From Candidatus Versatilivorator sp. (GTDB taxonomy: Bacteria; Acidobacteriota; Terriglobia; Versatilivoradales; Versatilivoraceae), in the NCBI GenBank assembly GCA_965207735.1, contig OZ242296.1:4448001-4512000 (forward strand): 64,000 nucleotides of DNA, in the 5' to 3' direction. The notes below the pieces were generated by a model. That model did not search any database. It was not told the DNA's origin and saw only the letters and a program-made list of their open reading frames with translations. The position numbers and the translations under genes are program-made. Below, piece by piece: positions 2,263-27,511 of the stretch. Numbering within the stretch: position 1 is the first letter of the stretch; each line of letters begins with the position of its first letter.

Positions 2263-3749
2263 GAGCCTTTTGCAAAATTCGGAATCGGGCATGACATTGG
2301 GCTGGCAACAGTGATGTTCCGGCGGTGACTACCCAGCTGCAAAGACCCTTTTGAAGGAAAAAGCCCGAATCTGATGGCCGGATGGCCAGCGGTCGCCGGA
2401 CGCAGGCACAGCTTACCCTCTCCCGGCCTTGAGGCGGGCGAACCTGCTGTGCGGTTGGGGGTGGCAACCCGGTCTTCAGAGCGTCAGGCGCATCAACTGA
2501 TCCACCGTCAGGGCCAGAATGCCGAACATCAGGTGGCACCTCACCTTGTCGGGGCCGCGAACCCTCACCTGCCTCCCGCCAAACTCCTCCTTGAGCCGTC
2601 CGTTGACCCGCTCCACCGTCGAGCGTTCCCGGTAGCGCCGCGCCTCGGGAGTCACTTGGCCGATACAGCGCCGGGCCAGTGCCTCCCGCTTCCGCTCGGC
2701 TTTCAAGGTAGCTCTTCGGCGGGGGTTGACGTCAATAATCGGCACATGCCCCAGCTTCTCACTGAAGGCCCGGATCTCCGGCGCATCGTAGGCGCTGTCC
2801 ATCAAGTCGTAGAGACTCTCGACCCGCCTTGCCGTCAGCGTCGCCAGCGGAATGGCTGCCTGAGAGTCATGCACCGAGGCCGAGGTCAGCAGACAACTGA
2901 CCGGAATCCCGCCGTCAATGGCGTCGAGGTGTAGCTTGTAGCCGGTCCAGCTCTCCTGATGCCCCTTGGCGTTGCGCTTGACGCCGATGTCGCAGGCCTT
3001 GGGCAACTCCTTCAACATTTCCTCCAGCGTCATCGACCCCTGCCGCTCCAGCCGGCTCAACCGCTTGGGCCGTCGCTCGCCCTTCGGCGGCCGGCCCCGC
3101 CGGCGTTTCCGCTTGGCCTCCGGCGCAGCCTTGGCCGCTGGCTTTTCCCGTCCCGCAATCGCCGTCGAGTCCCTCGACACATGCCCCGCCAAGTGGCCCT
3201 TCAGCGTCTCCTCCAGCAATGCCTCGTGCAAACGCCCCGGCAGGTCGCTCTCAGCGAATTCCGCAAAGGCCCGCGAGAAGGTCGACTCGCTCGGTACCTC
3301 CCACGCCCTCTCCCAGCCGCACAGCCGCCGCAGCCTCCCCTCACTCCTCAGCCGCTCCACCAATCCCCGCGTGGTCGCCACCTCCAGCATCGACTTCGCC
3401 AGATAGGCTCGCGCCAGCACTGCCCGATCCTCCAGCGGCCGGCCACGCCAGCCCCGACTGTAAGGCAGCAACTCCTCCACCCGCACCAACTCCAATACCT
3501 GCACCAGCCGCTGGTAACGCTCTCCCAGAGGCCCCAAAACTTCCTCCAGCAGGGGAAACAGCTCTCGTTGAAACCGGAACCAGTGTCGTGATAGGGTTTC
3601 CCTAAGGGGCAAGTTCCACCTCCGTTCATCATGTGGTTCAGACACCTTCATGATACAACAGACAGTGGTCTTGCCCCTCCTTCCACCTGCCCTCCTTGAT
3701 CTTTCCCCACGTGAAAATTCCCGCTATCTGCGAATTTTGCAAAAGGCTC
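2263..3749 (-). mobile_element. IS element (IS4/IS5/IS1182-like) inserted into a repeat unit
   Basis: Terminal inverted repeats GAGCCTTTTGCAAAATTCG / CGAATTTTGCAAAAGGCTC; AAAG duplicated at 2259-2262 and 3750-3753; removing it restores the repeat unit. Confidence 0.9.
2476..3612 (-). CDS. DDE transposase
   Basis: RDSTAI, GYKLHL, SVHDS, MDSAYD, YRERSTVERVNGRLK motifs. Likely TTG start at 3612 after GGAGG; the ORF track starts at 3651. Confidence 0.9.
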   Translation of the reverse strand: MPLRETLSRHWFRFQRELFPLLEEVLGPLGERYQRLVQVLELVRVEELLPYSRGWRGRPLEDRAVLARAYLAKSMLEVATTRGLVERLRSEGRLRRLCGWERAWEVPSESTFSRAFAEFAESDLPGRLHEALLEETLKGHLAGHVSRDSTAIAGREKPAAKAAPEAKRKRRRGRPPKGERRPKRLSRLERQGSMTLEEMLKELPKACDIGVKRNAKGHQESWTGYKLHLDAIDGGIPVSCLLTSASVHDSQAAIPLATLTARRVESLYDLMDSAYDAPEIRAFSEKLGHVPIIDVNPRRRATLKAERKREALARRCIGQVTPEARRYRERSTVERVNGRLKEEFGGRQVRVRGPDKVRCHLMFGILALTVDQLMRLTL

Positions 3750-20669: not shown

Positions 20670-21030
20670 CGCCAGCCTTCGCCATTCGGCGCTACCGTTC
20701 GGAGGCGCCGCGTTGGCCCCCCTCCGCATCAGCCTTCGCCTGCGGCTCGGCTTCTGCGACTCCCCCTCAAGGGGGGGGTGATATCCGTGTTATGAAGGGG
20801 GAACGGAGTTTTTGCGTTAGACCGGGAACATGGTTTACATCCCGCCCAGCAATCGGGCAATAAGCCTTGTGCGGGCCTCAAGTATCACTCCCCCCTTGAG
20901 GGGGAGTCGGAGAGACAAGGGCGAAGCCCGCAGTCGATCCGGAGGGGGGCATACTCGGCGCCCCGTGAGTGGAAATCGGAGAAACAAGCGCGCAGCCCGC
21001 AGTCGATCCGGAGGGGGGCCAACGCGGCGT
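20670..21030. repeat. Composite repeat family B (paired CTCCCCCTCAAGGGGGGAG-type palindromes around a conserved GATGTAAACCATGTTCCCGGT core)
   Basis: Near-identical copies at ~29150-29650, 38015-38230, 49480-49800, 53540-53830, 56490-56640, 56840-56990. Confidence 0.85.
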
Positions 21031-24033: not shown

Positions 24034-25147
24034 GGCCCGGCCGTGCGGATCACACAAGAGTGAAACAATCGAAAATCGGCCATCCTTTCGCGACCTTGGC
24101 ATCCCGTCGCGGTTAACCTCAACGCCTTGGTGGCCTTTCGTCGTCCTTCTTGTCCCTTCGTGGATAGCTCCTTTTTCTTTTGTTTCAGGAGAGCCGATCT
24201 CCGGTGCCTCGCGCTTTCGGCAATCTGCTGTCGCCGCCTTCGCGGCTCGACCTGGAGCTACCCCTTTCCATGGGCTCACGCCCACGGCTACCTGCTGCCG
24301 CCGCTCCGCGGCTCGATGGATCGCCCGGGCGTTCGCCCGGGATTTCTTATTGCCAACAAGTGTCGCCCCCGCCCTGTCGTGCGGATCATACGAGAGCAAA
24401 ACAATCAGAAATCGATCATCCCTTCGCAACCTTGGTACCCCGTCGCGGTTAACCTCAGCGCCTTAGTGCCCCTTCGTGGTCCTTCGTGGATCACTCTTTT
24501 TCTTTTGTCTTTTGTCGGTTGTTTCAGGCAAGTTCCGCCCCCGCCCTGCCGTGCGGATCATTCGAGAGTGAAACAATCAGAAATCGACAATCCTTTCGCG
24601 AACTTGGTATCCCGTCGCGGTTAACCTCAGCGCCTTCGTGTCCCTTCGTGGTCCTTCGTGCCCCTTCGTGGATAAGTCTTTTTCTTTGTCTTTTGTCGGT
24701 TGTTTCAGGCAAGCGAGGCCCCCGCCCCCCACGACGGGGCGGATCATTCGAAGGTGAAGAAACAGGGTTGTTTCAGACAAGCCGGGCCCCCGCTTTGCCG
24801 TGCGGATCATACATAGAGTGAAACAATTGGAAATCGACCATCCCTTCGCGACCTTGATACCCCGTCGCGGTCAACCTCAGCGCCTTCGTGCCCCTTCGTC
24901 GTTCTTCGTGCCCCTTCGTGGATAAGTTTTTTGTCTTTTGTCTTTTTTCGGTTGTTTCAGACAAGCCGGACCCCCGCCCTGTCGCGCGGATCATACGAGA
25001 ATGAAACAATCAGAAATCGACAATCCCTTCGCGAACTTGGCACCCCGTCGCGGTTAACCTCAGCGCCTTAGTGCCCCTTCGTGGTCCTTCGTGCCCCTTC
25101 GTGGATAAGTCTTTTTCTTTTGTCTCTTGTCGTTTGTTTCAGGCAAG
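24034..25147 (+). repeat. Tandem array of six non-autonomous IS110-ended elements (24034-24193, 24361-24532, 24533-24713, 24714-24781 empty, 24782-24965, 24966-25147)
   Basis: Each begins ..CCCCGCCC..CGGATCA..GAGTGAAAC (with variants) and ends TGTTTCAG(G/A)CAAG (first unit ends CAGGAGAG); the array abuts the IS110 element. Confidence 0.9.
24229..24314. repeat. REP-like repeat family C
   Basis: CCATGGGCT.ACGCCCACGGCTACCTGCTGCCG motif; copies at ~35257-35304, 50044-50240, 57174-57259. Confidence 0.8.
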
Positions 25148-25199
25148 TCCCGCCCCCGCCCCCCACGACGGGCGGATCATTCGAGGGTGAAACAACGGA

Positions 25200-25390
25200 T
25201 CATTGTGAAAGAATAAGCACCTGGCGAGACTCCGGCAGCTACGCCCCGTTCCAGCATTGGTGCCCCGTGCCCCAAGACAAGTCTGGGTCCGAGCAGGTCA
25301 TCATTCATTAGTGAGGCTTCCCGGGAAGCTCTCCTCAAGGCAAGAATCCGAACGACCACGCCAACTCGGGCCGGAGCCCTCGCCCTGGAG
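25200..25390 (+). ncRNA. Putative bridge/seek RNA in the IS110 5' non-coding region
   Basis: GGCGAG-A-CTCCGGC can pair with GCCGGAG-CC-CTCGCC; inner hairpin GCTTCC-CG-GGAAGC; position matches IS110-group bridge RNAs. Expression not shown. Confidence 0.6.
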
Positions 25391-25402
25391 GAGGCCAATC
25401 TC

Positions 25403-26809
25403 ATGCAAAAGAGCAGGAAAGTCAACACGAAGGCGAAGAAGACCCCGAAGAAGAAGCGCAGCCGTTCGACAGCCTTGTCGCGGATCCACCCCGAGGTGGC
25501 AGGGATCGACCTGGGGAGTCGGGAGCACTGGGTGTGCGCTCCGGAGGTGACCCCAGGGAAGCCGAACGTGCGCACCTTCGGCACCACCATGGAGCAGTTG
25601 CAGCAACTGGCCGACTGGTTGCTGGAGCAAGGGGTGGAGTCGGTGGCGATGGAGAGCACCAACGTGTATTGGATTCCCCTCTACGAACTGCTGGAGTCCT
25701 GCGGCATCGAGGTCTTGCTGGTCAACGCCCGGCAGTTGCGCTACGTTCCGGGCCGCAAGACCGACATGCGGGACTGCCAGTGGATCCAGTTGCTGCACAG
25801 TTGCGGCTTGCTGCGGGGATCCTTCCGTCCGCACGAGGCGATCGTCCGGGTTCGGACCCTGCACCGGCAACTGAGCACTCTGGGGGCCGAGAGTACCCGC
25901 TTTGTGCAGTGGATGCAGAAGGCGCTGGATCAGATGAACGTCCAGATCCATCGTGCGGTCACCGATCTGACCGGTCAGACGGGGATGGCGATCGTGCGGG
26001 CGATTGTCGACGGCGAACGGGACCCGGTCCGTCTGGCGGGTCTGCGGGACCGACGGTGCAAGAAGTCCAGCCGGGAGTTTGCCGAGCACCTCAGAGGCAA
26101 CTGGCGAGAAGAGCATCTGTTCAACCTCAAGTCGGCGCTGAAGCTCTACGACATGACTCAACGCGAGATTGCGGCCTATGAGGCCCGCATCCTGGAGGAA
26201 ATCCAGGCGCTGCAACCGGTGGAGCGCCACGACCAGCCCGTGCCGAAGCATCCCAATGCGATCAAGGAAAAGGCGATTCGCCGCCGCGGTGGGCACCACC
26301 TGCGCACCGAACTGTGGCGCTTTGCCGGAGTCGATCTGACGCGTATCGACGGCATCGGCACCGAAGCGGCCCTGACCCTGCTGACTGAGGCCGGCCTCGA
26401 CCTGACGGCCTTCCCCTCGGAGAAGCACTTTGTATCCTGGCTGCGCCTGGCTCCAAAAACGGCCGTCTCCGCAGGCAAGCCGCTCCACTACAAGAAGGCC
26501 AACAGCACCGGGTCTACTCGCGCCGCCGCCGTCCTGCGCATGGCAGCCGTCTCTCTGAAGCACTCCAAGACCGCTCTGGGGGCCGCCTTCCGTCGCAAGG
26601 CCCGCCACAAGGGATGGAGTGTCGCCGTCTTCTCCATGGCTCGCCGGCTGGCCGTTCTCGTCTACCGCATGCTGCGCTACGGCCAGGACTACATCGACAT
26701 CGGGGAAGCGTGCTACGAGGACCGGTTCCGGCGACGACGCCTCGCGGGCCTCAAAGATGCCGCTAAGTCTCTTGGTTTCAACCTGGTTCCACAAATCGCA
26801 GCCGCTTGA
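25403..26809 (+). CDS. IS110-family DEDD recombinase/transposase
   Basis: AGIDLG, VAMESTNVYW, GRKTDMRDCQW, IDGIG, FVSWLRLAP..SAGK; GGAGG RBS. Confidence 0.95.
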   Translation: MQKSRKVNTKAKKTPKKKRSRSTALSRIHPEVAGIDLGSREHWVCAPEVTPGKPNVRTFGTTMEQLQQLADWLLEQGVESVAMESTNVYWIPLYELLESCGIEVLLVNARQLRYVPGRKTDMRDCQWIQLLHSCGLLRGSFRPHEAIVRVRTLHRQLSTLGAESTRFVQWMQKALDQMNVQIHRAVTDLTGQTGMAIVRAIVDGERDPVRLAGLRDRRCKKSSREFAEHLRGNWREEHLFNLKSALKLYDMTQREIAAYEARILEEIQALQPVERHDQPVPKHPNAIKEKAIRRRGGHHLRTELWRFAGVDLTRIDGIGTEAALTLLTEAGLDLTAFPSEKHFVSWLRLAPKTAVSAGKPLHYKKANSTGSTRAAAVLRMAAVSLKHSKTALGAAFRRKARHKGWSVAVFSMARRLAVLVYRMLRYGQDYIDIGEACYEDRFRRRRLAGLKDAAKSLGFNLVPQIAAA

Positions 26810-26860
26810 ACTGCGGGGTTGTTTCAGGCAAGCACCCCCCGTCCCCTACGAGGGGCCGGA

Positions 26861-27511
26861 TCAGCGCCGCCGCAAGAGAATATAGAGGGCTCCGCCGCCT
26901 CCGTCTGCGAGACGAGCCGATGCATAGGCGATGACGTGACGGCTCATGCGCCGGGTGTCCAGCCATTTCGACAGCCTTTCCTTCAATGTCGGCCGACCCT
27001 CCCTCGAGTGGTTTCCCCGCCCGTGAACCACCCGTACGCATCCATGGCCCTGCTTGAGGCTGGAATGGATGAAATCCTCGAAGGCTTTCCTGGCCTCGGT
27101 GGCGACAAGTCCGTGCAGATCGAGGTGAGCCTGTACCGAAAAACGCCCCTTCCTCAGGCTGCCGATCCAGCGGCGGCCCTCGGGATGCGGTGTCCCCTCC
27201 AGGTATTCTCCACTCATGGTCAAGTCGAAACGTCCCTTCCCGGAGACAAACTCCTGTAGCAAGCGCAACCCTTCCTCCTCGTCGTCAATGGGACCCGGGA
27301 TTTCGAGCACCGGAGTCGCCCGGGATGGAGCGGAACTCCAACCCAGGGGAGCCACCTCCCGCATGGACCGGGCGAACAATTGGTCGTCGCTGAGGGTCTC
27401 GGGCAATCCGACCGGGGCCTTCGCCTTTTCCGGAACTGCCACGGGGGATCGCCGACGAATCCGAGCCAATTCGGCAAACGACTTGAAGGCTCGATAGGCG
27501 GGCTTCTTCAT
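26861..27511 (-). CDS. Smr/MutS2-domain endonuclease
   Basis: LDLHGL, VVHGRG, GGGGALYILL. Confidence 0.9.
   Translation of the reverse strand: MKKPAYRAFKSFAELARIRRRSPVAVPEKAKAPVGLPETLSDDQLFARSMREVAPLGWSSAPSRATPVLEIPGPIDDEEEGLRLLQEFVSGKGRFDLTMSGEYLEGTPHPEGRRWIGSLRKGRFSVQAHLDLHGLVATEARKAFEDFIHSSLKQGHGCVRVVHGRGNHSREGRPTLKERLSKWLDTRRMSRHVIAYASARLADGGGGALYILLRRR

Follow-up and report, generated by a model that had tools for sequence, protein, structure and literature searches.

An IS110 element at the end of a miniature-element array

We analyzed a window of 64,000 nucleotides from Candidatus Versatilivorator sp. (contig OZ242296.1, positions 4,448,001 to 4,512,000 of the forward strand); the coordinates below are window positions on the + strand unless stated otherwise. 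The window carries a full IS110 element at 25148..26832, counted from the first base past the left AG core through the right AG core, with ends common to 10 copies in the genome. The element encodes an IS110 recombinase of 468 amino acids (25403..26809) with matches to Pfam DEDD_Tnp_IS110 and Transposase_20 and to NF033542 over the cutoff. We found that D36, E84, D121, D124, and S356 are conserved in at least 90% of 58 sequences, and we infer that S356 is the counterpart of S241 of IS621. The predicted model matches the IS621 and ISCro4 structures (Foldseek E value, 1e-11; 18% identity); a PDB sequence search found nothing. Compared with the IS621 chains, the protein has about 150 additional residues. 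In the predicted model, residues 435 to 467 form a C-terminal helical extension past the Tnp domain, a candidate reader of the repeat or hairpin described below. At least 7,849 relatives were found at an E value of ≤1e-50.

On its left, the element abuts AGGCAAG (25141..25147), which comprises the left target and the AG core and at the same time forms the right end of the miniature element before it. Its own right end (26818..26832) consists of the inverted repeat GTTGTTTC, then the left-donor bases, and then the AG core. To the right of the element we read a decayed left-end-like sequence (26833..26864). One contig of a related strain fuses a right end to this flank without the IS, at a depth of 3.5, which makes it weak evidence.

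Five miniature elements with the same ends precede the full element in a head-to-tail array (24361..25147), at 24361-24532, 24533-24713, 24714-24781, 24782-24965, and 24966-25147. The 68-bp unit at 24714-24781 consists of the left and right ends only and is a natural minimal substrate; the genome holds 14 units of 60 to 79 bp. In a Pfam search of the open reading frames across the miniature array, none of the four had a match. Just upstream of the array, 24268-24313 matches Rfam Acido-Lenti-1 above the cutoff. Since many left ends in the genome have a similar palindromic repeat ahead of them, an Acido-Lenti-1-like site may repeatedly serve as the first place of landing. Another palindromic repeat family, REP-like and with no relation to the element ends, occurs at window positions 20689, 29132, 37932, 49459, 53527, and 56407, and a DDE transposase (DDE_Tnp_1, DUF772; 2476-3651, - strand) lies between miniature-element sequences of another array.

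Searching the genome with the IS110 family model gave no match besides the 10 full copies. In all 10, the same left end lies directly 3' of a right end of the form TGTTTC-N5-AG, and each copy terminates in an end of this kind too. Strict right ends number 221 in the genome (119 AGACAAG, 86 AGGCAAG, 13 AGGTAAG, and 3 AGATAAG) and left-end motifs number 219; most of these ends are on miniature elements of about 60 or 140 to 200 bp.

A predicted bridge RNA upstream of the recombinase gene

The initial annotation had located AGACAAG at 25275-25281 and AGGCAAG at 25338-25344, inside a foldable region closed by a long outer stem, and had equated both with the right-end variants found at array junctions. 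Both positions are correct, and the same words recur at the junctions (AGGCAAG at 24526, 24707, 25141, and 26826; AGACAAG at 24775 and 24959). The outer stem is real, but it is only 7 to 8 bp long (25230-25236 with 25370-25376) and is stacked on a second stem of 5 bp.

The predicted bridge RNA spans 25230..25376 and has covarying stems; its G-U pairs favor the + strand. Assembled RNA contigs cover the region without establishing expression or the RNA ends, and the contigs of four sequencing runs show neither RNA ends nor circles. When we placed the structure on an alignment of 47 of the 55 relatives, 98.1% of cells were paired, against 30 to 58% for slid controls; this score is favored because the structure was drawn from the same sequences. 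Two-sided changes occurred in 12 of the 32 pairs of the drawn structure, a number that 0 of 500 shuffles reached, and the RNAalifold fold was nearly the drawn structure. Folded alone, the region had a z score of +1.52, and 192 of 200 shuffles were at least as stable. Both loops follow one plan: the closing stem leads into a 5' strand whose last base is an invariant C, after which come a central stem with a bulge and a 3' strand that carries the 7-mer. The target loop is closed by 25243-46/25285-88 and the donor loop by 25289-98/25360-69. Both 7-mers lie in loops; in the RNAalifold fold, the first is unpaired and the second is unpaired save for a 2-bp pairing. We conclude that 25230-25376 is very likely the bridge RNA of the IS110 element.

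Two other placements were dropped. The alignment and RNAalifold favored an internal loop over a terminal hairpin loop for the first guide. The segment 25237-25246, which resembles the core and the start of the left end, scored 0.336 against 0.322 shuffled as a guide (positions +2 to +5) and is a linker plus stem. Rfam has no model for the predicted RNA, and a search of 25100-25420, a stretch that holds a natural right-end/left-end junction, found no promoter or terminator consensus.

The two left guides covary with the landing site and the right end

Relatives were gathered by protein and by an RNA pattern with fixed flanks and AG and with five guide bases free. At least 194 sequences matched the RNA pattern; among the matches listed, 157 passed the structure filter, 140 had a left junction, and 83 had a right end. 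Left junctions and right ends were defined independently of the guides. Dereplication at 95% gave 55 relatives for the target test and 43 for the donor test.

We found that the left target guide, AGACAAG plus one base that follows the first left-end base (25275..25282), agreed with the left flank and AG core at an identity of 0.909 (shuffled null, 0.388; 36/55 exact), with 38 distinct target guides among the 55 relatives. The left donor guide, AGGCAAG (25338..25344), agreed with the element's own right end at an identity of 0.981 (null, 0.744; 40/43 exact). Crossed guide-site pairs gave 0.404 and 0.433 against nulls of 0.375 and 0.409, and the signals of both guides persisted at 90% and 80% dereplication. 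Across edge-disjoint tree pairs, the DNA followed the RNA at 41 of 52 differing positions for the target and 9 of 10 for the donor, with 1 of 52 for the control. The base after the first guide equals the first left-end base in 45 of 55 relatives (54 of 55 with wobble) and does not track the right flank. Relatives L015, L030, L117, and L147 are exceptions to guide-site agreement. In relatives of 37 to 48% identity, both left guides agree with their sites, as judged by eye.

The 7-mers had been proposed as target and donor guides, and the covariation test suggested with that proposal gives 25275-81 as the target guide and 25338-44 as the donor guide, with null cross-controls. Since they vary in step with the landing site and the right end across dozens of relatives, they are very likely guides, and we are nearly certain of these two assignments. 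The segment AATCC after the second guide was rejected as a guide; it showed no change alongside the hairpin's C-to-T change in the few relatives compared by eye.

The two forms of the guides, A (AGACAAG) and G (AGGCAAG), can be followed in individual copies. In all 10 genome copies, the donor word is identical to that copy's right end; word and right end take the A form together in 2 copies, counted as one event. Across the genome and the protein-collected relatives, the A/G state of the donor word was that of the own right end in 33 of 34 copies. The target word agreed with the left junction in 12 copies and disagreed in 3 for A guides, with 8 and 3 for G guides (Fisher p, 0.015; copies are non-independent). 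All 26 full copies in the genus with an AGRCAAG target guide lie behind a TTTC-type right end. Among the three A-guide exceptions is the copy in the window: its left junction, AGGCAAG, mismatches its own A-type guide, and the insertion may accordingly have been made with the G-type RNA of a sibling.

An earlier statement that target and donor guides differ by one base holds for the copies with A/G (4 of 10) and G/A (2 of 10) target/donor pairs and fails in the 4 of 10 with identical G/G guides; because the pairs vary in this way, the one-base gap is not a rule. All 10 copies lie behind own-family right ends. Each 7-mer accounts for no more than the left half of its loop, and the target and donor loops are accordingly not near-identical. 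Among relatives, 10 of 54, in several separate groups, lie behind a TTTC-type end, which the target guide fits in most, and the two guides are at most 1 mismatch apart in 7 of 55. As judged from these guides, self-end targeting is a recurrent but minority state.

In L117/L142, L031/L035, and L085/L170/L174, which are separate groups, the target guide equals a sibling family's right end and the own donor guide is shifted, a form of hitchhiking on kin. In the proteobacterial plasmid relatives L202 and L204-L209, the target guide fits an A-run, and we take the flanks to resemble the slippery site of IS3-type elements.

A third segment matches an internal site of the left end

The right target guide appears vestigial (25254..25255): it comprises the invariant C, for which pairing with the core G is predicted, and a single base with weak covariation (16/42, p = 0.07; 11/23, p = 0.016), and positions farther out carry no consistent signal. 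No right target guide reaching 5 nt in length emerged, and 36 flanks gave no 5-mer signal. The first base of unique right flanks in the genome is C in 47 of 94, against a background of 28%, which fits the G of the RNA.

The donor loop differs. Its likely right guide, ATCATTC at 25300..25306, matches in the same sense an internal left-end site, ATCATTC at 25176..25182. The left end has the layout AG core, 8 nt, hairpin, matched 7-mer, 5 to 7 nt, and inverted repeat; here, the DNA hairpin is at 25156..25175 (stem 25156-61 with 25170-75) and the subterminal inverted repeat, GAAACAAC, is at 25189..25196 and covaries with the right repeat. A perfect stem of at least 4 bp stands at offset 8 from the core in 50 of 55 relatives, compared with 11, 11, and 14 at offsets 5 to 7. 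The stems are 4 to 7 bp long and varied in sequence, and the loops are 3 to 20 nt. The distance from core to site ranges from 20 to 38 nt across relatives, and that from stem to repeat is 12 to 14 nt in 53 of 55.

We compared the third segment with the 7 nt directly after the hairpin in 50 relatives, excluding the 5 of 55 with imperfect hairpin stems. The identity was 0.891 (shuffled null, 0.748; highest shuffle, 0.814), with 26 of 50 exact. The segment had no match to the core-adjacent bases at offsets 0 to 3 in either sense. At one highly variable position, the RNA base equals the DNA base in 42 of 50, the top of 151 RNA columns, with the runner-up at 23; the pairs are AA (16), GG (15), TT (6), and CC (5), plus 5 GA wobbles and 3 others. 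Independent contrasts at this position gave 5 of 8 to 9 that follow and 0 opposite. The third guide is looser than the first two: in pairs picked on RNA differences over all seven positions, the DNA follows at 5 of 21 and is unchanged at 11; among the pairs listed, treekit gave 2 to 4 well-supported ones for the third guide, so that test is underpowered. Mismatches favor wobble between the RNA and the bottom strand (34 versus 10, plus 28 others). Taken together, we consider it highly probable that 25300-25306 truly pairs with the internal left-end site.

In distant relatives, the same-sense internal match scored 4.85 for own pairs, 4.66 within groups, and 3.38 between groups (13 of 15 parsed); it is clear in L037 and L207 and significant at the group level only. 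In relatives of 37 to 40% identity, the hairpin is apparently weak or missing, by eye. Post-hairpin words of left ends in the genome are chiefly ATCATTC (58), ATCATAC (40), and ATCATCC (25; n = 136); ATCATAC resembles the guide of an L017-type sibling, which suggests earlier mobilization by another RNA.

The subterminal repeats, of about 7 bp, also covary: positions 6 to 8 are complementary in 67 of 105, against 34.8 shuffled. Their mismatches show no clear strand bias.

Comparison with known IS110 systems

On sequence evidence, the element is an IS110 member whose predicted bridge RNA is not of the IS621 type. As in IS621 and ISCro4/IS622, it has DEDD and Tnp domains, the same fold, and an RNA upstream of the gene (PMC11208160, PMC11208158), together with target and donor internal loops, a 2-nt core, and left guides on the bottom strand (PMC11208158). 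The accessible parts of these reports describe for IS621 a contiguous 14-bp duplex with right guides on the top strand, whereas the right donor guide here fits the bottom strand 20 to 38 nt away, and they describe a CT core, 2- to 3-bp repeats, and a junction promoter, whereas we found an AG core and 7-bp repeats (PMC11208160, PMC11208158). The left guide comes first in IS621, on the 5' side of the loops, and IS621 has a right target guide; both left guides here are on the 3' side, and almost nothing of a right target guide is evident (PMC11208158). In the portion of the Durrant supplement available, at least 15 rows carry the clade's motif, all without an ISfinder name, and the motif is absent, by eye, from the ISHne5 and ISAar29 rows (PMC11208160).

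The closest layout is that reported for ISPpu9/MITEPpu9 of Pseudomonas putida; this likeness is one of layout. Like our element, ISPpu9 combines an AG core and a short right end with a 43-bp left box in which AG, 8 nt, a hairpin, about 14 nt, and an AAAC word follow one another. It has a miniature partner directly behind its right end that shares one AG, and its circles are joined at AG (PMC12288879). The target of ISPpu9 is a host REP palindrome, whereas it is the own family's right end here, and the available sections of that paper contain neither guide mapping nor a fold-back donor (PMC12288879).

IS1111-group seekRNA elements share with ours subterminal inverted repeats and a top-strand guide ahead of a bottom-strand guide; they are described with the RNA downstream of the gene, repeats of 11 to 13 bp, and terminal extensions of 7 + 3 nt (10.1101/2024.04.26.591405). 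Our element, in contrast, has the RNA upstream, repeats of 7 to 8 bp, and a hairpin and internal site between core and repeat. In ISPpu10, a DNA stem-loop beside a guide-matched site is likewise reported to contribute to recognition; that stem-loop is in the target, whereas here it is in the element's left end, between two donor-guide sites (10.64898/2026.03.19.712850).

A proposed folded donor strand and its alternatives

We lean toward a reading in which the bridge RNA directs insertion behind own-family right ends and the donor is gripped not as a 14-bp duplex but as the bottom strand alone, folded on itself; for the folded strand taken by itself, we put the chance just above even. Two guides on opposite sides of one loop that both read the bottom strand would require the donor strand to turn back. 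According to this model, the two subterminal repeats would pair in the bottom strand and give a pseudo-duplex donor, in which the right-end 7-mer and the internal site would sit diagonally across an internal loop of about 15 by 13 nt. Diagonal sites on one strand would mimic the opened duplex of IS621, with one guide per strand. If the protein geometry is kept, the bottom strand would be cut first and copied out as a single-stranded circle, which would integrate via one strand exchange resolved by replication. Such an exchange takes place at integron attC sites, and we infer both the cutting order and the attC-like single exchange. When natural junctions from the window were folded, the repeats paired, and in 3 of 3 the bottom strand gave the lower energy; the folds are modest (z scores of -0.9 to -2.6) and have rival inner pairings. 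More broadly and more tentatively, at somewhat less than an even chance, a large IS110 clade would employ bridge RNAs with three guides, acting on a donor folded from a single strand; the bottom strand would be copied out, its ends would pair as a pseudo-duplex, and one strand exchange like that of an integron cassette would follow. In our element, a 7-nt guide retuned to the family's own right end would have made it an array writer and the source of about 220 ends in the genome.

Related reactions have been reported. Single-stranded copy-out is described for IS621, whose authors propose conversion to double strands before insertion (10.64898/2026.08.31.748434), and copy-out with top-strand integration is described for CazIS110-1 (10.1101/2025.10.25.684509). 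A search of full-text literature, mostly without subscription papers, found none on a fold-back donor or a right-end-directed target guide.

The strongest alternative, which we consider unlikely but substantial, keeps the same guides on a double-stranded donor: the third guide would open the left end as an R-loop, with the hairpin or spacer looped out, and the repeats would be symmetric protein sites or matched by conversion. Double-stranded circles are reported for IS110 elements (10.64898/2026.08.31.748434), and ISPpu9 circles form without the hairpin. The left-end hairpin mutants of ISPpu9 still gave intact circles by end-point PCR, which counts against a required hairpin; the mutants described in the accessible part of that paper leave out the post-hairpin site and the repeat pairing (PMC12288879). 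The lack of a clear strand bias in the repeat mismatches also fits a duplex. In contrast, the order in the RNA, with the internal-site guide 5' and the right-end guide 3' in one internal loop, needs a DNA strand that turns around. Moreover, the distance of the site is fixed to the repeat and not to the core, and the letters of the repeats differ among relatives while complementarity is kept.

For the arrays, the target guide would direct insertion behind right ends of its own family, and the recombinase likely moves the miniature elements in trans. Each insertion recreates the target at its own right end, and arrays would therefore grow; the guides likely make the element stack behind its own family's ends. 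That the arrays arise mainly from donor-donor recombination or homologous expansion is improbable in our view, even though the internal junctions of the array all constitute complete donor junctions, reactions through the donor loop alone are reported (10.64898/2026.08.31.748434), and tandem expansion with left-donor-only matches is described as general in IS110 loci (10.64898/2026.08.14.744561). Set against this, the A/G state of the target guide tracks that of the junction (12:3 versus 3:8; p = 0.015, with non-independent copies), and the target guide fits the TTTC-type end in most of the few relatives that lie behind one (10 of 54). Among CAGRCAAG sites, 63 of the 210 at right ends and 11 of the 361 others have a left end after them (both undercounts, from a strict left-end finder); this difference suggests that a feature beyond the guide, probably the adjacent repeat, favors right ends.

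Small duplications occur near the ends. Tandem micro-repeats of 7 bp adjoin element ends in the L017-L025 flanks and at positions 107407 and 2081795 of the genome (G000), and in L017-L025 the repeated unit is similar to the target word of the element itself. Of 155 terminal right ends in the genome, 14 are followed by a 5-nt RCAAG duplication. Both are possibly products of off-register recombination.

A little less probable than array formation mainly by donor-donor recombination or homologous expansion is that the two 7-mers are guides and 25300-25306 is not, its left-end match being a regulatory or historical duplication and the donor loop working by a right-end half match. Half-match recombination is reported for IS621 (10.64898/2026.08.31.748434), the target loop already seems nearly without a right guide, and the DNA often stays when the RNA changes. 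What speaks against this is the four-state identity at the variable position, the best of 151 columns (42 versus 23), the wobble-biased mismatches, and the place of the segment, which is equivalent to that of a right guide and has the invariant C at its end in both loops.

Finally, chance, which the initial annotation had left as an explanation for such short words and which the failure of the single-sequence fold to beat shuffles might seem to favor, has a negligible probability and is ruled out by guide-site covariation across relatives (38 different target guides among 55, at 0.91 identity to their own flanks) and by the tree contrasts. The genome background predicts 0.023 AGRCAAG-type words per 190 nt on one strand (probability of at least two, ~2.5e-4); because this figure is post hoc, the weight falls on covariation as the test proper.

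Implications

The folded-strand reading bears on the open question of whether IS110 donors are single or double stranded, and it gives exact base pairs. If it is true, a bridge recombinase could accept cargo in single-stranded form, and this clade would be misread by screens in which the donor is reconstructed from the roughly 25 nt surrounding the core (10.64898/2026.10.21.760802). If it fails, a well-supported bridge RNA that accounts for a large family of miniature elements remains. Self-end targeting, for its part, would be a natural route to ordered, repeated insertion at a harmless site.
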